Origin: a virus
Lineage: Duplodnaviria > Caudoviricetes
DNA: 51,401 nt
Virus record (IMG/VR): IMGVR_UViG_3300037439_000104
Coordinates: 1 to 51,401 of that record
Strand: one strand, 5' to 3'
The notes under the pieces are model-generated. The model had not been told where the DNA came from. It searched no databases and saw nothing but the letters and a program-made list of their open reading frames with translations. Of this stretch, positions 23,356 through 44,631 are shown in pieces; within the stretch, counting starts at the first letter, position 1, and the number at the start of each line of letters is the position of its first letter. The translations under genes were made by a program, and so were the position numbers.

Positions 23356-24348
23356 TCAGCGCGGCGCGGGGTCGTCGGTGCGGTCGAGGTGGCGCCCGAA
23401 CCGGCTCATCAGCCGGTAGGCGGCGGCGTTGGCCGGGTCGTACTGCGACCGGTCGTAGCCACGGGTGGTGTCGGTGGAGGCATGCCCGACGTCCCGGGCC
23501 ACGTCGTAGATCGGCACGCCTTCGTCGAGGGCGGCGGTCACGTAGGTCGCCCGGGTCGAGTGCGGGGTCAACTGGTCGACCACGGTGGTCGGTAGGCCGG
23601 CGGCGCGGGCGAGGCGGCGGAGCAGGAGCCGGACGGCCTTGCGGTCCATCCGGGCGCCCTTGGCGGTGGCGATGAGCGGACGCTGCTGGCCGGCACCAGC
23701 CTGGTCGGTGCGGACGACGGCCATGGCGGTGTCGGTCCGAGCGGCCAGGTACCCGTTGAGGCGGGCGACGACCGGCGGCACGAGGGTGACGGTCCGACCC
23801 TTGCCGCCCTTGCCGTGGACGTGGAGCACGGTGTGGCCCCGGTCGACGGCGATGTCGGCGGTGTTCGCGGCGAGCAGTTCACCGACCCGGATGCCGGTGT
23901 GGATGAGCAGCCAGACGATGGCGGCGGAGCGTGGGGTGTCGAGGTCGGCCCGGTCGAGCAGGGCGGCGGCGTGTTCGTCGGACAGCGCGGACGCGGGCCG
24001 GGGCGCCCGGGTGGGGCGTTCCTCCTTGGTGAGCTTGGCCGGGTTCCGCTGGGCCTGCTGGTTGCGGATCAGCCACTCGTAGAAGCTGGACACGGCGCCG
24101 AGCCGGCGGGCCTGGGTGGTGCCGGACTCGCCACGCTGGCCGAGGTGGCCAAGCCAGAGTTGGACGTGGGCGGGCCAGACGTCGAACGGGTCGAGGCCGT
24201 TGGCGTGGCACCAGTCGAGCCAGATCGGCAGATCGCGGCGGTAGGCGTCCTTGGTGTGCTCGCTCCGCTGACCCTTGGCCTCGACGAAGACCGCGACGAG
24301 CCGAGCGAGGCGGTCGCCCGGCTGCGCCACGGGTACGAGGTCGGTCAC
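23356..24348 (-). CDS. Second tyrosine recombinase (XerC/D-like)
   Basis: SAM-like N-terminus; TGIRVGEL, GKG, PHSTR, GHAS..TT..Y complete catalytic set. Confidence 0.9.
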   Translation of the reverse strand: MTDLVPVAQPGDRLARLVAVFVEAKGQRSEHTKDAYRRDLPIWLDWCHANGLDPFDVWPAHVQLWLGHLGQRGESGTTQARRLGAVSSFYEWLIRNQQAQRNPAKLTKEERPTRAPRPASALSDEHAAALLDRADLDTPRSAAIVWLLIHTGIRVGELLAANTADIAVDRGHTVLHVHGKGGKGRTVTLVPPVVARLNGYLAARTDTAMAVVRTDQAGAGQQRPLIATAKGARMDRKAVRLLLRRLARAAGLPTTVVDQLTPHSTRATYVTAALDEGVPIYDVARDVGHASTDTTRGYDRSQYDPANAAAYRLMSRFGRHLDRTDDPAPR

Positions 24349-33107: not shown

Positions 33108-33304
33108 GACGGATCCTTCTCGGCGAGTAGGGCGCGGGCGAAGATGGCGGCTCGGCCGGTGGTGACGGCGGGTTCGACCCGCCGGGACTCCAGTGCGAGC
33201 CAGTCGGCGAGTGGCTCGCGGATCCGACTGGGCAGTTCGGCGGAGGTCCGAGCCGTCTCGGCGGCGGCCCGGAGTAGGTCAGGGGTGTGCCGGTGGGTGG
33301 TCAT
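33104..33304 (-). CDS. Hypothetical protein
   Basis: MTTHRHTPDLLRAAAE..., ATGA overlaps. Confidence 0.5.
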   Translation of the reverse strand: MTTHRHTPDLLRAAAETARTSAELPSRIREPLADWLALESRRVEPAVTTGRAAIFARALLAEKDPS

Positions 33305-34971
33305 GCCGTCCGCCTCGAAGTGGGTGCCTCGCCGGTCAGGGACTCGACGACGGCGGCGATGAGGTCCCGTGCGGCGGGCGGAGTGACGGCGTTTCCGAGC
33401 TGCCGGACCCGCTCCCGCTTGTTGCCGAGCACCACGTAGCCGGGCAGGAACGCCATCGCGGCCTGGATCTCGTGGGGCTCCAACATGCGGAAGGTGCAGT
33501 CCTCGACCGCGACTTGCGGGCCGAGCAGGGAGTAGGTGTCGACCGTCGGGATCGTGCCGATCGGGTCGCTTACAGGCTTGGCGGTCGCTCGGGTCGTGTA
33601 GTACGGCACCAGCAGGTGGTCCCACCGGATCAGTGACTGCATCGACGAGGCGGTCTGGGTTCGGATGGGCTCGTCAACCGGCGTGGACATCTGGCCCTGG
33701 TCGCCGCGTGCGGTGTTGTTTCGCATGACGAGTGCGTGGTGGTTTCCGGCCGCCGCGACGGTCGGCACCGGGTGATCGGCGGACCGGGCTACCCCGTTGT
33801 TTCGCAGCGGCACCACGAGCGCGTCCTGGAGTCGGGCGGTCTGGGTTCGGGCCGGGTCCGATGCCGGCCGGGCGGAGATCCCGTCGCGTCCTTCGACCGG
33901 CACCACCAGCGCCTCGGTGTCCCGGGTCGTCCGTGTCCGGAACGGCTCCGTGACCGGGGTGCCGGAGTCGTTCCACGTTCCTCCGGCGGGCACCAGCATC
34001 GGCGGCACCACAGAGCCGAGGTGATTACCCGAAGCGGTCAACGTCCGCAGCGGCTCCTCGATCGAGGTCGTGCGGGTGTCGGACGGGCCGCCTCGGTGCA
34101 CCGTGATGAACGGGGCGCTGGCGTACCGGCGCAGCCCGGCCTCGATCCGGGCGAGGGTCTTCGCGGCGAGCGGCCGGGTCCGATCCCCGATCCGGTCCCC
34201 AACGAGCGCCCAGTCGATCGCGGCGGCGGCGGGGAGCACGCCCGGGAACACCTCGCTGTTGCGGCACTGGGTGCGTGGGCACCGATACAGGTACTGCTGC
34301 CGGTAGCGGCCGTGCCGCCGGTCGGGGCGCTTCCACGCCTGCACGGCCCGGACGGACCGGTCACAGGTCGGGCACCACGCGGCGGGGCGGGTCCACGTCT
34401 CCAGGTCCGGCCGGCGGTTCCCCTTCCGCCACGCGACGACGTACAGCCGGTCGCGGGACTGCGGTGCGGGAGCGCCGACCTGCTGGGCGAACATCGAGTT
34501 GAGGTAAACGACCTGGTGGTCGTAGCCGAGGTTGTCCAGCCCGACTGCCCACGACGGCCAGAGAATCCAGTCTCGAACGTCGACGACGTTCTCGACGATG
34601 ATCGCGGCGTACCGGTGGACCTCGGCGAACCGCAGGACGTCGAACATCGTCGCCCGAGACCGCTCCGCCGCCTCGTCGGGCAGGACCTCATCGAACAGGT
34701 TCGGTTGCAGACTGTCCCGCTTCTGACCCTTCGCCTGGCTGTGGTTGGTGCACTCCGGCGAGGCCCAGAGGATGTCAGTGCTCGGGTAGCGGCGGGGGTC
34801 GGTCTGGGAGATGTCCGCGCAGTCGTGGTCGGCGCCCGGATGGTTCGTGTTGTGAGTGTCGACCGCCAGTCGCCAGTGGTTAGCGGCCATCCGGACGCGC
34901 ACGCCTGGAACCTGGATGGCGCCGGAGCTCGACCCGCCCGCTCCGCAGAACAGGTCGGTGATGGTGATCAC
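33301..34971 (-). CDS. DNA (cytosine-5) methyltransferase
   Basis: DLFCGAGG (motif I), SPECT (divergent PC), ENV, PQSRDR, QLGNAV. Confidence 0.9.
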   Translation of the reverse strand: MITITDLFCGAGGSSSGAIQVPGVRVRMAANHWRLAVDTHNTNHPGADHDCADISQTDPRRYPSTDILWASPECTNHSQAKGQKRDSLQPNLFDEVLPDEAAERSRATMFDVLRFAEVHRYAAIIVENVVDVRDWILWPSWAVGLDNLGYDHQVVYLNSMFAQQVGAPAPQSRDRLYVVAWRKGNRRPDLETWTRPAAWCPTCDRSVRAVQAWKRPDRRHGRYRQQYLYRCPRTQCRNSEVFPGVLPAAAAIDWALVGDRIGDRTRPLAAKTLARIEAGLRRYASAPFITVHRGGPSDTRTTSIEEPLRTLTASGNHLGSVVPPMLVPAGGTWNDSGTPVTEPFRTRTTRDTEALVVPVEGRDGISARPASDPARTQTARLQDALVVPLRNNGVARSADHPVPTVAAAGNHHALVMRNNTARGDQGQMSTPVDEPIRTQTASSMQSLIRWDHLLVPYYTTRATAKPVSDPIGTIPTVDTYSLLGPQVAVEDCTFRMLEPHEIQAAMAFLPGYVVLGNKRERVRQLGNAVTPPAARDLIAAVVESLTGEAPTSRRTA

Positions 34972-35879
34972 GCGGCGTCTCCCATCGCGTCGAAGAGACT
35001 GGGCAGGGCCATCTCGTGGTCGAGCGTCCGCAGGTTGTCGACCGCGGTTCGCCAGTACGAGGGCTTGAGTTCGATGCCGAGCCCGCGCCGGCCGACCTTC
35101 ACCGCGGTGTAGACCTCGGACCCGATGCCGGCGAACGGGCTCAGCACGAGCTCGCCCGGGTTCGACCACAGCCGGATGCAGCGTTCGATGAAATCGAGCT
35201 GCAGGGGGCAGATGTGCCGCTCGTCGGCGTCGTCCTTCGCCACCCGGGTGTTGAGCGTGTTGGTCTCCCGGATGCCCAGCCAGATCGGCCGGGCCCAGGC
35301 GATCCATTCCTCGTTGCTGACGTCCGACTTCACGGGCACCGGGTTGTCGCCGGGCTTGCGGAACTTGAGCAGGTAGTCGGGCAGCGCCGGCCGGAGCATG
35401 GAGGCGTCGCGGTCCTTGGTGACGAACAGCAGGCTGTGGCTCTTGGTGCGGATGGCCTGCGCCTGCGGGTCCTTGTCGACGGTCACCCGCCCGTCGAAGA
35501 TCCAGCCCTCGTCGACGAAGGCCCGAACCACCTCGCCGGAGAAGTCGGTCAGCCCGATCACGCCGTGCATGACCTTCTGCTGGGTGATGTCGGCGACGTG
35601 CACCGCGGCGATCCGGCCCGGCCGGGTGACCCGCAACTGCTCCCGGATCACGTAGCGGTAGTGATCGAGGAACTCGCCCCGGCTGCGGCTGTTGGACAGG
35701 TCGCGCGGGCTCGGTGAGTAGTTGTAGAGCTGGGCGAACGGTGGTGAGCAGACGGACATGTCGACGCTGTCGGCCTCGATCTCGGCGAGCCGTTCGCACG
35801 AGTCGCCGAGCAGCAGCCGCCACGTCGAGCCAGACTCTTCGGCGGTCAGGTAGGTGGCGTCGTAGGTTTCGGTGTTCAT
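34968..35879 (-). CDS. DNA amino-methyltransferase (N4/N6, beta class)
   Basis: CSPPF precedes HICPL...SPFAGIGS. Confidence 0.85.
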   Translation of the reverse strand: MNTETYDATYLTAEESGSTWRLLLGDSCERLAEIEADSVDMSVCSPPFAQLYNYSPSPRDLSNSRSRGEFLDHYRYVIREQLRVTRPGRIAAVHVADITQQKVMHGVIGLTDFSGEVVRAFVDEGWIFDGRVTVDKDPQAQAIRTKSHSLLFVTKDRDASMLRPALPDYLLKFRKPGDNPVPVKSDVSNEEWIAWARPIWLGIRETNTLNTRVAKDDADERHICPLQLDFIERCIRLWSNPGELVLSPFAGIGSEVYTAVKVGRRGLGIELKPSYWRTAVDNLRTLDHEMALPSLFDAMGDAA

Positions 35880-35897: not shown

Positions 35898-35936
35898 TTG
35901 ACGCGTGTAGATACACGCGCTAGTGTGTAGATACAC
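35898..35936 (+). promoter_or_regulatory. Promoter with two operators
   Basis: TTGACG (35898)-N17-TAGTGT (35921); GTGTAGATACAC at 35905-35916 and 35925-35936. Confidence 0.75.
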
Positions 35937-35953: not shown

Positions 35954-36181
35954 ATGCGAGGCGACATCGTTCAGGACCAGATCGGCTGGTTTTTCCGCGA
36001 CAACGGCGACGGCACCATGGATGACCTGAGCGGCAACGCCAAGGTCCAGAAGGTCACCGCCGAGGCCGCGAAGGGGCAGCCGGTTGTGCTCGTTCGCAAC
36101 GGCAAGGCCACCGGAAGCGGCGATGTGCTCGCATCCCGGGTCGCGGTCAAGCTGGCCGAGCGATACGCCCCGGTGGCCTGA
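35954..36181 (+). CDS. Small hypothetical protein, counter-oriented cassette gene 1
   Basis: GGAGG RBS; contains GQPVVLVRNGK resembling Phd/YefM. Confidence 0.65.
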   Translation: MRGDIVQDQIGWFFRDNGDGTMDDLSGNAKVQKVTAEAAKGQPVVLVRNGKATGSGDVLASRVAVKLAERYAPVA

Positions 36182-36182
36182 C

Positions 36183-36368
36183 GTGCCGCGCGGAACTACG
36201 CTGCGAGCGGTCCGCATCGGTGATCCGATGTGGGAGGCCCTTGCGGCAGGCGCCGACGCAGAAGGCACCGACCGGACCAAGTTCCTGCTGGCCGCCGCAC
36301 GCGAGAAACTGGCGCGGCTCGGCATCGAGGTGGTCGACGACATCACGCCGCCACCCCCGTCCGAGTAG
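36183..36368 (+). CDS. Ribbon-helix-helix regulator
   Basis: TTLRAVRIGDPMWEALAAGADAEGTDRTKFL is an RHH pattern; GTG 36183. Confidence 0.7.
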   Translation: MPRGTTLRAVRIGDPMWEALAAGADAEGTDRTKFLLAAAREKLARLGIEVVDDITPPPPSE

Positions 36369-38067
36369 CGTTCATTGCCGCCACCAACTCACCCGTGAAT
36401 CGAGCGGCCTCGCGCTCTTTGCGGGTGACGTTGGTGGCGATCTGGCCCTCCAGTTCCGACAGCACGATGTGCACGTCGACGGGGCGCGTCTGGCCGTACC
36501 GCCAGCAGCGGCGGATGGCCTGGTAGTAGGACTCGTACGAGTCGTTGAGCCCGACGAAGACCATCCGGGCGCAGTGCTGCCAGTTCATGCCGTGGGCATA
36601 GACATCGGGCTTGGTCACGAGGATGCGAACGTGGCCCTCGCGCCACGCCTGCTCCCGCTCAAGCTTTTTTCGCCAGGGCGTCTTGCCCTGAATGGAGACG
36701 CACTGTTCGCCGAACACCTCGGCGAGCGCGTCCTGCTCGTCGTTAAGTCCGCACCAGATCAGCCACTGGTCTTGGCACGCATGAGGTACTCGAACAGCGC
36801 CATCACCCGGATCGGGTCGTCGCCCAGATGTCCCAGCGCCAAGTTGCAGGACTGACAGAGAACACCACGGACCGTGCCCGTCTTGTGATCGTGGTCCACG
36901 TGCAACCGGCAGGTCGAGTCCGCTTCCGGATGCGCCCTGCAAACCGAGCAGCCCTGGTCGAGCATCAGCTCCAGCTCCGACCGATCCAGGCTGTACGTCG
37001 ACGCTCGGCGGGCCAACGGGTTTCGGCGACGGTAGTTCGCTACATCCGACTTCATCTGCTCTCGGTGCTCGGCCTCCTGTGCGTATCGCTCCCGCCGTCG
37101 GGCGTTGCGCTGATCTTTCGTCGCCTCCCGGTACGCCTTCACTCGATCCCTGTTCCGGGCGTACCAGTCCGCCATGTACTGGCGCTTCTGCTCGTCGGCA
37201 GTCATTGGCAATCTCCACAGCCCGGTCGACCCGGGCATCGAGCGTGGCCCGGCGTACCGCGGCCCGTCCGCCGACCCCGCCGAGCGTGGTGGCGAACAGT
37301 TGCCCTTCAGGCGCCGGCAGGTCGACGGGGATCAGCTGTGGGGTGATCCGCAGTTCCGGCAGTACGTAGCCGTCGTCGCTGTAGCCGATGTCCGACGGCC
37401 GGCGCAGGGCGACCGCCCAGGTGGACATCCACCGGAACATCGGCGCCCGCGCGTGACCCTTCGCCCGCCACCCGTCCTGGTCGTGGATGAAGTAGGTGGA
37501 GAGCATCTCTCGCCGCGTCGCCGTGCCGAGGAATTCGGCATGGTTGGCGAGCTCGGCGACGTCGTTGGGTGCCGGAGTTGCCGAGCAGCACAGCCGCCGG
37601 GGCACGCCGCCGAAGTGGGCAATCAGCTTGTCGCGGGTCTTCGACGTGACGTCCTTGAGGATCGAGGACTCGTCGAGCACCACGGCGCCGAGCCGGGTCG
37701 GGTCGAAGTGCTCGACCATCTCGTAGTTGGTGACCCAGATGCCGGGCCCGTCGACGGCCGCGCCGTCCCGGACGTACCGCGCGGTGATACCGATCCGCGC
37801 GGCCTCCTGCACGGTCTGCGCGCACACCGCCAGCGGCGCCACGAGCAGCGTGGTGTCGGCGGATAGCCGGGCCCACTCCAACTGCATCCGGGTCTTACCC
37901 AGGCCGGTGTCGGCCCAGATCGCGGCACGACCGGCGCGCACCGCCCAGGTGACGATCCGGGCCTGCCACGCGTGCAGGCTCGGGTGCACCAAGTCGACGT
38001 CGACCTCGATCCCGACCTGCCGGGCGGCGACCGCCTTGCGGGCGAGGAATTCCTGATAGCTGGTCAT
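36343..38067 (-). CDS. SNF2-like DEAD-box helicase carrying a ~144-codon insertion
   Basis: DTGLGKT, LDESS, SATPAPND, GMNWQ, QAIRRCWRYGQ; low-complexity insert between AVEIAN and DQWLIWC. Confidence 0.85.
   Translation of the reverse strand: MTSYQEFLARKAVAARQVGIEVDVDLVHPSLHAWQARIVTWAVRAGRAAIWADTGLGKTRMQLEWARLSADTTLLVAPLAVCAQTVQEAARIGITARYVRDGAAVDGPGIWVTNYEMVEHFDPTRLGAVVLDESSILKDVTSKTRDKLIAHFGGVPRRLCCSATPAPNDVAELANHAEFLGTATRREMLSTYFIHDQDGWRAKGHARAPMFRWMSTWAVALRRPSDIGYSDDGYVLPELRITPQLIPVDLPAPEGQLFATTLGGVGGRAAVRRATLDARVDRAVEIANDCRRAEAPVHGGLVRPEQGSSEGVPGGDERSAQRPTAGAIRTGGRAPRADEVGCSELPSPKPVGPPSVDVQPGSVGAGADARPGLLGLQGASGSGLDLPVARGPRSQDGHGPWCSLSVLQLGAGTSGRRPDPGDGAVRVPHACQDQWLIWCGLNDEQDALAEVFGEQCVSIQGKTPWRKKLEREQAWREGHVRILVTKPDVYAHGMNWQHCARMVFVGLNDSYESYYQAIRRCWRYGQTRPVDVHIVLSELEGQIATNVTRKEREAARFTGELVAAMNATRTGVAA
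36759..37205 (-). CDS. Endonuclease VII-family (HNH-like) homing endonuclease nested in another frame of the helicase
   Basis: CSVC...LHVDHDHKTGTVRGVLCQSCNLALG..GDD; GGAG-N7-ATG at 37205. Confidence 0.9.
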   Translation of the reverse strand: MTADEQKRQYMADWYARNRDRVKAYREATKDQRNARRRERYAQEAEHREQMKSDVANYRRRNPLARRASTYSLDRSELELMLDQGCSVCRAHPEADSTCRLHVDHDHKTGTVRGVLCQSCNLALGHLGDDPIRVMALFEYLMRAKTSG

Positions 38068-38672
38068 GCCGCGATCAGCCCCCGATCGCGCTGCCGCTTG
38101 ACGTAGCCCATCAGCGCGTTGTGGGTGCAGCCGATCGTCGTGGCGACGTCGGCCCACGCCACGCCGTCACGGCGCATCGCCTCGATCTGCTCGTGGTGCT
38201 CGGCGGGCCGGATCTGCGTGCCGAGCAGCGCAGCCTTTTGGCGGATGGCTTGGTCGGTGACGTAGTTCCGGATCGTGGCCCGGGTCAGGCCGGTCGCCCG
38301 GGAGATCTGGGAGTAGCTTTTGCGGGCTCGCCGCATCGTGTCGATCGTGGCGCGGTGGTCGGCGGCGGTGCGTGGACACATGCAGGTGGCGGGCCTGCCG
38401 GCGATCCGCTGGTGCCATGGGTGGCCGCACTGGTCGCAAACCTTGATTGGTTTGCCCCAGTCGTTGTGGGCGGTGCCGGCGACGATTACGCCGACGGGGT
38501 TCGGGTTTCGGTCGGGGCATTCGCCGGCGAACCGGCACGCGGTCCGGCACAGGAGGATGGCGGCGGCGTTGCCGGGGTTGCCGGTGGTCCACCATTCGGG
38601 GTCACGGACCTCGCAGGGGCGGAGTCCGGCGAGCGGGGCGCATCGCCCACGGGTCAGGGTCGGGGCGTTCAT
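38064..38672 (-). CDS. WhiB-like Cys-cluster protein with two C-terminal HTH motifs
   Basis: C...DPEWW...C..C...EC...GVIVAG; SYSQISRATGLT, WADVATTIG. Confidence 0.6.
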   Translation of the reverse strand: MNAPTLTRGRCAPLAGLRPCEVRDPEWWTTGNPGNAAAILLCRTACRFAGECPDRNPNPVGVIVAGTAHNDWGKPIKVCDQCGHPWHQRIAGRPATCMCPRTAADHRATIDTMRRARKSYSQISRATGLTRATIRNYVTDQAIRQKAALLGTQIRPAEHHEQIEAMRRDGVAWADVATTIGCTHNALMGYVKRQRDRGLIAA

Positions 38673-42901: not shown

Positions 42902-43300
42902 ATGGCTGACGGGTCCGATCGAGGCGTTGCGTACGACTTCTGGGTACGCGTGAAGCGCGAACAGGCGAGCCGTGGGTGGACCGACGAGGAACTACGCCGA
43001 CAGTCGGGCATCGCCCGGACGACAGTTGACCGACTGGAGAAGGGCAAGCGGGCACCCGCCGCAGCCACAGTCAACTCGTTGGCCACAGCCTTGGACGTCG
43101 ACCAGGACGAAGCACACCGTCTCGCACGACTGGTGCCGGATCTACCTCGATCGGGTGGAGTCAGCACCCGCGACGCTGTCCTACGCGACCCGAACTACAC
43201 CGAGACCCAGCGGCAGACGATGCTCGAACTGCTCGATGTGTTCGCTCGCGTCAACGAGCAGGCCGCCGATGCCGACGACCGCGACCGGAAGGCCGGCTAA
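42902..43300 (+). CDS. XRE-family immunity repressor
   Basis: RGWTDEELRRQSGIARTTVDRLEKGKRAP...LATALDV. Confidence 0.85.
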   Translation: MADGSDRGVAYDFWVRVKREQASRGWTDEELRRQSGIARTTVDRLEKGKRAPAAATVNSLATALDVDQDEAHRLARLVPDLPRSGGVSTRDAVLRDPNYTETQRQTMLELLDVFARVNEQAADADDRDRKAG

Positions 43301-44631
43301 CTCTCGCCGCGCCCCGACCGTCGAGCATCCGCCACCGCGTCGACCGCAAGCTCTTCCGCTTCCGGCATCAGGTCCCCGTAGATCTCGCTCGTCGTCGCGA
43401 GCTGCTGATGGCCGAGCCTGCGCGAGATCGCCAGGGGGGTCATCCGAGGATCGCTGAACAACCACATGGCGTGCGAGTGCCGAAGGTCGTGCCACGACGG
43501 CGCCGATCGGAGCACGTCTGGGCAGTCACAGTTGGAGGCGGCTCCAGCTGGCGGGCCGAAGTGCTGGGCGCAGCGGTTGGTGCCCGGCACGACCCGCGAA
43601 CCGCATGCCTGCCCGTTGGCCCGCTGCCCGCCGAAGTCCCGGCACCGACCCCGGGCCCCGGGCACCAACTCACCGCGGTCCGCCGGTGGATGGTCAGAGC
43701 ACCGTCGAGCACGCAGCAACGCTGGCTGCCACACTCGGTCATACATCCGGTCGTAGTCCAGGGCCTCGCCGTTGTCGTCCCGGAAGATGAACGTGTCCGG
43801 TGTGCCGCCGTCGACCAGGTCGAGCAGTGTCTTGTACAGGTCGGCGCCGATCGGCAGGGTCCGCTTGCTGCGGCCCTTCGTCGCCCCGAGGTACCGGGTG
43901 CCGTTCGCTTCCTTCCAGGCCCGCCAGACCCGGATCCGGGGGCCCCTGCCGGGTGTCGGCGCGGCGAGGTGCTTGGCGGCCAGCGCGGTGACCTCACCCC
44001 AGCGCATCCCGGTCTCGATGATGCAGTCGAGCAGCGGGTGCCACTGCTCGGCGAACTGGGCACGGAGCGTCTCGAAATGGCGTGGGGTGAGGTAGACGGC
44101 GTGGTGTTCGCCCGTGTCATCGTCGGCGCGTTGGTCCCGGACGAAGTCGGTGGCCCGGCAGGGGTTCAGGTCGATGTGTCCGTGTCTGGCGGCGGCTTCG
44201 AGCAGGGTGTGCAGCAGCGAGTAGTAGCGGGTGACGGTCTTGGGGCTGCCCATGACCGCGCTGAGTTGGTTGAGCCAGGTGCCGACGGTGACGGCGGTGA
44301 TCGTGGTCATCGGTATGTCGCCGAAGGTGGGCAGGATGTGATCGCGGAGCTGCTGCTCGTATCGGGCCCGGGTGCCGGGGGTGATGCGGGTCTTCGATGG
44401 CAGCCACTCGTCGGCCCACTGCCGCAGTGTCAGCCCGGCCGGTTCCTCGGGCTCCTCCACCACGCCCATGGCCTCGTAGACGTCGTCGGCGCTGATCTGG
44501 TGCCGGTGCCCTTCGGCGATGTCGCGGGCCTGCTCAGCGAGAGGTTCGGTGGGCCACGTGGTGTACTGCTTGCGACCCTCGTAACGCCAGATCACCCGGT
44601 ACGAGTCGCCGCGCTCCTCGATCGACGCCAT
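43297..44631 (-). CDS. int: Tyrosine integrase
   Basis: Arm-binding N-terminus; TGMRWGE, HDLRHSH, LGH...TT..Y; adjacent to the tRNA-derived att core. Confidence 0.95.
   Translation of the reverse strand: MASIEERGDSYRVIWRYEGRKQYTTWPTEPLAEQARDIAEGHRHQISADDVYEAMGVVEEPEEPAGLTLRQWADEWLPSKTRITPGTRARYEQQLRDHILPTFGDIPMTTITAVTVGTWLNQLSAVMGSPKTVTRYYSLLHTLLEAAARHGHIDLNPCRATDFVRDQRADDDTGEHHAVYLTPRHFETLRAQFAEQWHPLLDCIIETGMRWGEVTALAAKHLAAPTPGRGPRIRVWRAWKEANGTRYLGATKGRSKRTLPIGADLYKTLLDLVDGGTPDTFIFRDDNGEALDYDRMYDRVWQPALLRARRCSDHPPADRGELVPGARGRCRDFGGQRANGQACGSRVVPGTNRCAQHFGPPAGAASNCDCPDVLRSAPSWHDLRHSHAMWLFSDPRMTPLAISRRLGHQQLATTSEIYGDLMPEAEELAVDAVADARRSGRGES

Follow-up and report, generated by a model that had tools for sequence, protein, structure and literature searches.

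Textbook homing endonucleases enter genes only with an intron, with an intein or by splitting the gene. The locus considered here, a nuclease gene of the endonuclease VII (Endo VII) type lying out of frame inside a phage helicase gene, is found in a 51,401-nucleotide (nt) stretch of viral DNA (Duplodnaviria; Caudoviricetes), positions 1 to 51,401 of IMG/VR record IMGVR_UViG_3300037439_000104, which was analysed at its full length and is called the window below. The closest described systems are the ShiLan domain and the insertion in Pacc40 gp60, hidden HNH insertions with about ten mycobacteriophage cases, for which no ribosome-binding site was found (Arsenault, Gosselin and Gogarten 2025, PMC11855218). 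The parts of that paper covered here contain no stop-avoidance test, second nuclease frame, split form or long replaced tract. Out-of-frame Endo VII-like nucleases are also described inside terminase inteins (Gosselin et al., bioRxiv 10.1101/2025.01.02.630785). The nuclease genes mobE in Aeh1 nrdA and mobA in T4 gene 39/60 split their host genes and come with neither intron nor intein (PMC2988022; bioRxiv 10.1101/2022.08.31.505936). When a free-standing homing nuclease cuts at a distance, the repair tract spans both the cut and the insertion site (PMC2988022). F-CphI of the DHHRN family is a small protein with a C-terminal Endo VII motif and conserved D, H, H, R and N residues (Fang et al. 2018, PMC6083498). 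All these papers are drawn on for the parts covered here.

The host gene (36343..38067, minus strand) has 574 codons, is open through the insertion and encodes a SNF2-like superfamily 2 (SF2) helicase/ATPase that matches PHROG 62 and PHROG 16. In Pfam, Helicase_C scores above its cut-off and SNF2-rel_dom just below. The protein's SNF2-type fold comprises two RecA domains, Walker A, DE and motif VI are all present, and Foldseek matches its model to CSB, Mot1, Chd1 and ISWI, whereas a phmmer search of an empty helicase against the PDB gave no match. Alignment to insertion-free alleles, proposed in a preliminary description of the locus as the means of fixing the boundaries, places a 438-nt segment (36766..37203, minus strand) between N288 and W435 in place of the 18 nt that the commonest empty allele has there, so that the net insertion is 420 nt. 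The preliminary description was right about the insertion itself, but its 432 nt from GAC 37203 to GAC 36771 miss the boundary by 12 nt: all 77 empty alleles are longer than a GAC-to-GAC cut would leave, by 12 nt (60 alleles), 9 nt (4) or 6 nt (13), and none has zero extra. These empty alleles come from 80 viral helicase loci found with the 5' half, of which two others carry an Endo VII gene at the same place and one lacks the 3' half. In an AlphaFold2 model built on an 84-row alignment, the helicase core is confident, while residues 292-428 have a pLDDT score (predicted local distance difference test) below 50, a predicted disordered loop, and the insert follows helix 276-288 and precedes the first strand (435-439) of the second RecA domain. 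The nuclease gene is inserted at one fixed site of this SNF2-like helicase, a predicted loop before that strand. As would be expected of the RecA fold in general, this helix-to-strand loop presumably faces away from the ATP cleft.

The nuclease gene (36759..37205, minus strand) lies in the +1 frame and encodes 148 amino acids (aa) with a basic N-terminal part (residues 1-70) and a C-terminal catalytic domain. A complete endonuclease VII in the shifted frame, as claimed earlier, is borne out by matches to PHROG 2914 (E 2e-23) and Pfam Endonuclease_7 (69.8 bits; cut-off 23.6). Residues 84-143 match the Endo VII catalytic domain, a C-terminal placement as in F-CphI. The catalytic core (36843..36950, minus strand), aligned to T4 Endo VII and Hpy99I, consists of C86xxC89, D104-H105-x-H107, R113 and C117xxC120-N121. 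This pattern of catalytic and zinc residues is intact in 57/57 elements of the survey given below, each of which has the D, H, H, R and N and the two CxxC pairs of a DHHRN nuclease. A GGAG Shine-Dalgarno (SD)-like motif (37213..37216, minus strand), whose use in initiation is presumed, is formed by the helicase codons GTG GAG 7 nt before the nuclease ATG; the ATG spans the host codons AAT GAC, and the TGA lies within host CTG ATC, all three as described before. The two edge-repeat copies reported earlier are also present (TGCCAATGAC at 37210 and TGCCAAGAC at 36777), but the repeat fails as a signal, since sharing of the same 6-mer is at chance level: a 6-mer is shared by both edges in 4/50 non-split elements, each time a different one. 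The search for a sigma-70 promoter for the nuclease found none, which is uninformative in a genome of 70% guanine plus cytosine (GC). The codon-position GC is 0.70/0.51/0.91 in the 5' part of the helicase; for the insert it is 0.82/0.66/0.45 by host-frame codons and 0.64/0.46/0.81 by nuclease-frame codons. The insert thus fits the nuclease frame, and the inserted DNA was coded in that frame. Among ten element pairs, identity is 51-66% in the nuclease frame vs 29-42% in the host frame, and by this comparison the nuclease frame is under purifying selection. A related free-standing Endo VII gene (L001:3001-3447) lies directly behind a distant helicase of the same family, before its methylase, and this arrangement is possibly the ancestral layout.

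Loci were collected by DNA pattern scans blind to stop codons, by helicase-seeded scans and from GenBank phages. This gave 82 loci with a full nuclease at the helicase site, including the window, two GenBank phages and duplicate contigs; clustering at 90% nuclease identity, which merges the duplicates, gave 57 elements. Left out before this count were L299 (its junction is false), remnants whose gap is shorter than 300 nt and ten loci lacking the 5' half. There are 49 fused elements (length 3n, no host-frame stop), seven split ones and one (L303) with a single TAA, and among the fused ones the nuclease is in the +1 frame in 32 and in the +2 frame in 17. All three motif pattern tests (Walker A, DE, motif VI) are passed by 42/57 inserted helicases, and most of the other 15 are cut by contig ends or variable in Walker B. 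Records of the carrier loci name Actinomycetota, Pseudomonadota and Bacillota genomes besides many viral and metagenome contigs. Cultured carriers are the Gordonia phages Malisha (gp71) and Squiddly (gp64) (L234, L235), with a +2-frame element in a protein that GenBank labels only 'DNA helicase'. Among the 120 best matches in the protein database, about 20 are helicases 540-625 aa long that have such inserts; these are open by construction and were therefore excluded from the stop counts. A protein search with the junk (host) frame of the insert alone returned only the window and P0002 among 2867 candidates. The element is patchily distributed among close host alleles, and helicases 80-94% identical carry two element lineages, +1 in the window and +2 in P0016. 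In-frame shrunken remnants are L214, L331, L334 and P0072. Of these, L214 resembles the element of L180 with a 333-nt deletion, L334 retains 93 nt and the tract described below, and L331 retains 63 nt with an empty-type tract. The 623-aa protein P0030 has a +1-type insert of normal length and is about 50 residues longer than its peers elsewhere.

Stop avoidance in the host frame across homologs, a check suggested in the preliminary description, was assessed by holding the nuclease protein fixed and redrawing synonymous codons at each element's own third-position GC. In the 49 fused elements, no host-frame stop is observed vs 271 expected, while the unused third frame has 334 stops vs 383 expected and is open in 0/32 of the +1 and 0/17 of the +2 elements. 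By chance 0.47 open alleles are expected, against 49 seen; for the window allele alone, synonymous resampling gives P = 0.024 for an open host frame. As a control, free-standing Endo VII-like open reading frames (ORFs) are open in 1/59 in each of their two shifted frames. The resampling and this control rule out a high-GC accident as the cause of the open frame, and open host frames also occur in inserts of 38-50% GC (e.g., L218, L333, L337). These sequence statistics show selection for an insert length divisible by three and against stops in the helicase frame, which means that ribosomes must cross the insert in the helicase frame.

The preliminary description held that frequent host-frame stops in homologs would speak against a tolerated loop. 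Such stops do occur, but in 7/57 elements they come with a new start for the second half, which strengthens that reading. In these split alleles (L202, L231, L335, L360, L217, L296 and L327), the 5' half of the helicase ends a few codons into the insert, and the 3' half has a start of its own, an ATG (CTG in L296) behind a purine-rich SD, 3-4 codons ahead of the conserved W. Under a single rule, an SD and a start codon no more than 12 codons from the second half are found in 6/7 split vs 0/50 non-split elements or, with CTG allowed, in 7/7 vs 1/50. The window has none near W435 and so is not a gene in pieces with two ORFs, as these seven relatives are. All seven keep Walker A, DE and motif VI, and their inserts are AT-rich (36-48% GC). 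These relatives show that the insertion site tolerates a real chain break, and because the second half brings a ribosome-binding site and a start of its own, precise removal of the insert is not needed. By analogy with Aeh1 nrdA and T4 gene 39/60, the split halves would reassemble. A quick nuclease tree puts the split alleles at several points, with four forming a single clade within the fused +1 elements; on this unrooted tree we infer that they derive from fused ones under strong mutation pressure to stops. Recoded stop codons, considered for the stops in L202, L231 and L217, were rejected, because stops of all three types are present while the flanks have none of these problems.

Downstream of the insert, about 50 helicase codons (444-493; 36589..36738, minus strand) are of a different sequence type and form a candidate co-conversion tract, which may remove the cut site. 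The window helicase and P0004, its nearest empty allele, share 94% identity over the first 262 aa, 35% in the tract (residues 444-493) and 87% in the 75 aa that follow it. In the tract, all 97 empty proteins compared stay at or below 39% identity to the window. P0002, which carries the same element, is 80% identical to the window over these residues and only 73% in the 5' part. A two-residue signature of the tract (Q and W) is found in 53/57 inserted vs 4/108 distinct empty alleles. In FastTree trees of 220 rows, unrooted and for the tract built on few columns, the 'inserted' state changes 33 times on the 5'-half tree (18 forced by starred branches) vs five times on the tract tree. The element thus appears to move together with a piece of the helicase, which is the signature of homing-type co-conversion. 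In L301, the 3' half of the helicase ends about 52 residues past the W and gives way to other sequence, perhaps a second insertion at the tract's distal end.

Taken together, the element is best read as an Endo VII/DHHRN homing nuclease gene with neither intron nor intein that the helicase reads through as a disordered loop, at a site that tolerates a break and with a replacement tract carried along; we give this reading a probability of about 0.75. In the proposed mechanism, ribosomes would read the helicase straight through and produce a protein of ~574 aa with a disordered loop of ~140 residues, and internal initiation at GGAG-N7-ATG on the same mRNA would yield the nuclease. The nuclease would cut the empty helicase allele near the site, probably within ~50 codons downstream, and repair from the carrier would copy the nuclease gene and the carrier's version of ~50 codons, which would lack the target. 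The earlier suggestion of a non-splicing selfish element tolerated as a disordered loop agrees with the stop avoidance, the disordered loop model and the movement of the element as a unit.

In the window's clade, the host frame itself carries conserved residues that are candidate ligands of a clasp: Cys290 (37198..37200; 17/20 rows), Cys402 (36862..36864; 18/20 rows) and His429-Ala-Cys431 (36775..36783; His in 18/21 rows, Cys in 17/20), all on the minus strand. At the three Cys codons, a change at the nuclease's free third base would give Arg, Gly or Ser, and at the adjacent position, 401, which is also free, the residue varies (R 12, W 4, G 4). In five DNA alleles, T stands in at least four rows at only 4/140 third positions, and three of the four make Cys290, Cys402 and Cys431. 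P0072, with a remnant of 47 residues, has lost about 90 loop residues and kept all four candidate ligands; P0020, P0038 and P0100 have lost both end Cys together. Among these rows, which are related, the pattern indicates selection on the host (junk) frame in the window's clade, and zinc binding would be its simplest reading. C290, C402, H429 and C431 may accordingly be supposed to bind zinc in this clade and hold the loop base together, a hypothesis that we rate below even odds. Somewhat more tentative is the comprehensive view of the element as a purpose-built, splicing-free counterpart of an intein, which would home with a replacement host piece, use either shifted frame, switch between loop and split forms and carry a de novo zinc clasp that staples the loop so that the helicase folds. 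If true, the clasp would be a new protein structure born in a junk frame, neutralising the parasite's cost.

Several points weigh against the reading as a loop-tolerated homing element and its extension to a clasp. Since 'fused' is defined by the lack of stops, the count of zero is circular, and the case rests on the two-class pattern and the controls; moreover, the 49 fused elements are related and do not represent 49 independent draws. Decayed alleles are under-represented, since the patterns behind most loci required the nuclease C-N motif at 62-92 nt ahead of W-x-x-W-C. The +2-frame element L303 (546 nt), whose helicase frame holds a single TAA, lacks a rescue start; it is possibly a recent pseudogene, a sequencing error or a case of read-through. 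Helicase activity in carriers is read from the intact motifs only. The mosaic could reflect gain with co-conversion or, in the neighbours, loss through recombination, and the unrooted trees fit both directions. The tract type occurs without this insertion in 4/108 empties and in Pacc40, L311 has the insertion with an empty-type tract, and the tract may be structurally co-adapted to the loop instead. The clasp is not general, as Cys is found at both loop ends in only 5/49 fused elements, and AlphaFold2 places C402 in the disordered part.

Other fates of the insert have to be weighed against plain read-through. After read-through, the loop could be nicked or trimmed by host proteases, so that the helicase works as two associated halves. 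This is in line with loops that are G/E/S/R- or S/T/P-rich and predicted disordered and with the natural split of 7/57 elements at the same site, yet the conserved Cys/His at the loop base in the window's clade equally fit an intact, stapled loop, and we consider such processing unlikely. Excision of the loop at the protein level, by an unknown reaction using the start Cys and the end His-Ala-Cys, could explain why C290 and H429-A-C431 are conserved in the window's clade where the nuclease frame leaves a base free, and removal of C290 to A430 gives a spacing seen in 4/77 empty alleles. Inteins, which these ends resemble, run from C1 to His-Asn before Cys+1, with a Hint domain and a terminal His-Asn/Gln before Cys/Ser/Thr. 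In contrast, the loop ends in His-Ala-Cys with no Asn/Gln, the inserted protein segment has no match to a Hint or other family in Pfam, and its model is disordered with no fold predicted. The rarity of Cys at both ends speaks against excision as well, as do the unrelated S/T/P-rich loops from the other frame that work at the same site, and we regard it as very improbable.

Equally little weight is given to removal of the insert by ribosome bypass between matched codons (GAC/GAC or TGC/TGC) or by unknown RNA splicing, the alternative kept in the preliminary description. Both codon pairs are present in the window, L084 and L338, and T4-type bypass cassettes, as far as the covered sources describe them, ride on a homing element, some of them using GAC. 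However, matched codons that restore an empty-like length are found in 27/49 elements vs 35.7 by shuffling, with none common across clades, and the product of a GAC-GAC hop would be shorter than all 77 empty alleles. In most of the bypass cassettes known from the same sources, a stop follows the take-off codon and a stem-loop is conserved; in the window, TGC follows GAC, and RNA folding is no better than in shuffles (z 0.44 for the insert; -1.10, -0.07 and -1.36 for the edges). Rfam gave six matches at E <= 5, none an intron and all far below the gathering score. This search thus showed no ribozyme core of a group I or II intron, and the nuclease ORF fills the insert. Removal at the RNA level would not select for an open frame, since splicing or bypass would make it unnecessary, and the selection on the frame therefore speaks against both. 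The alternative with its 12-nt boundary error is thus not supported, while the earlier statement that intron and intein features are lacking agrees with Rfam, Pfam, the disordered model and RNA folding. Finally, the nuclease may not, or no longer, be homing here: it could be domesticated, kept for a phage benefit and inherited with the helicase, with the mosaic a product of ordinary recombination. The purifying selection on the nuclease frame fits this, no two near-identical elements turned up in helicases that differ strongly, and Endo VII-motif proteins include resolvases and restriction enzymes (PMC6083498). On the other hand, the patchy spread on the helicase tree, the decayed remnants, the two element lineages among closely similar helicases and a catalytic domain placed C-terminally as in F-CphI, not N-terminally as in the T4 resolvase, all count against domestication, and the same phage has a separate RuvC-like resolvase, which was counted for homing. 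Domestication is therefore given only a slight chance, and the loop-tolerated homing nuclease remains the preferred reading.

The gene content of the window has the look of a temperate high-GC tailed phage, with integrases, portal, terminase, major head and tail proteins, RecE/RecT and the RuvC-like resolvase, and its host is probably an actinobacterium, judging only by the names of near helicase relatives. Two separate genes of the tyrosine-integrase family lie in this one record (23356-24348 and 43297-44631, minus strand). A Logan contig of run X1 shows no difference from window positions 36488-38600; it possibly stems from the source sample and is hence not independent. Downstream of the helicase lies an N4/N6-type DNA methyltransferase gene (34968..35879, minus strand; PHROG 67 and the methylase part of PHROG 16), the usual partner of this helicase family and fused to the helicase in some phages. 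Two DNA methyltransferases stand in tandem after the helicase (33301-35879, minus strand), and the PHROG match of the second (549 aa) spans a much shorter stretch of the profile. Between helicase and methylase, an ORF of 75 aa on the opposite strand (35954-36181, plus strand) and a short neighbour intervene, unlike in relatives, where the two genes adjoin or are fused. A short repeat, TGTATCTACAC, is found at about 35900-35935.

Comparison with the known systems places the element closest to ShiLan and Pacc40. As in these, in the parts of that study covered here, an out-of-frame nuclease ORF fills an in-frame, stop-free insertion with a disordered loop, no intron or intein features and a patchy spread; the window element has an open host frame, a shifted nuclease ORF filling the insert, no intron or intein signature and patchiness. 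The Pacc40 gp60 insertion even lies in a helicase of this family, 40% identical over the 5' half, so the earlier remark that no Endo VII/SNF2 case was known needs to be narrowed; it holds in that the Pacc40 site is different and the nuclease is HNH-type. Unlike ShiLan and Pacc40, the window has an Endo VII/DHHRN nuclease, with an SD present. The Pacc40 insertion is located about 50 residues further upstream, between RPSD and GYDLPP, the RecA2 site of Pacc40 is empty, and a tblastn search with the window nuclease against Pacc40 gp60 gave no match at E 0.01. In Pacc40 gp60 (L362:3102-7127), the published 'methylase' insertion lies in the helicase domain, and the RecA2 segment is of the travelling-tract type. 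The covered parts of the literature on terminase inteins describe nucleases of this family that likewise overprint an open host frame in a shifted one, as checked in the Angelicage terminase; there, the intein removes the insert, whereas the window helicase has no splicing domain. In the Angelicage terminase (L236:1305-1838), an out-of-frame Endo VII gene lies in the intein, and the host frame is S/T/A-rich like the +2 loops here. The window nuclease fits the DHHRN family by residues and layout, with F-CphI compared by its described layout, not by sequence; F-CphI is free-standing and reportedly targets psbA.

In the literature search, which left most subscription journals outside its coverage, no paper turned up that describes an Endo VII gene at this site of the helicase. 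A fourth route, the read-through loop, was proposed in PMC11855218 from a handful of phages and, in the parts covered, with no selection test; the present family supplies that test. The family also shows the lifestyle to be widespread and links it to the split-gene route at a single site, and the cultured carriers Malisha and Squiddly, the two frames and the selection test make a recent open question directly testable. Moreover, the family offers dozens of candidate small site-specific nucleases with a predicted target region, a class of genes missed by annotation and a natural experiment in overprinted frames gaining function. As the covered parts of the mobE and mobA papers describe it, mobA brings a replacement copy of adjacent host sequence (HomR), which resembles the travelling tract, and the seven split alleles share the mobE/mobA layout. 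In contrast, mobE and mobA split the gene and add tails of ~44 aa, and mobA adds a bypass cassette, whereas here 49/57 elements stay one ORF and the splits add few residues; the replaced tract is about 150 nt here vs 55-75 nt in mobE/mobA-type elements. Compared with all these systems, what is new here is the duality of loop and split forms at one site together with the travelling tract, the lifestyle itself having already been published in 2025.

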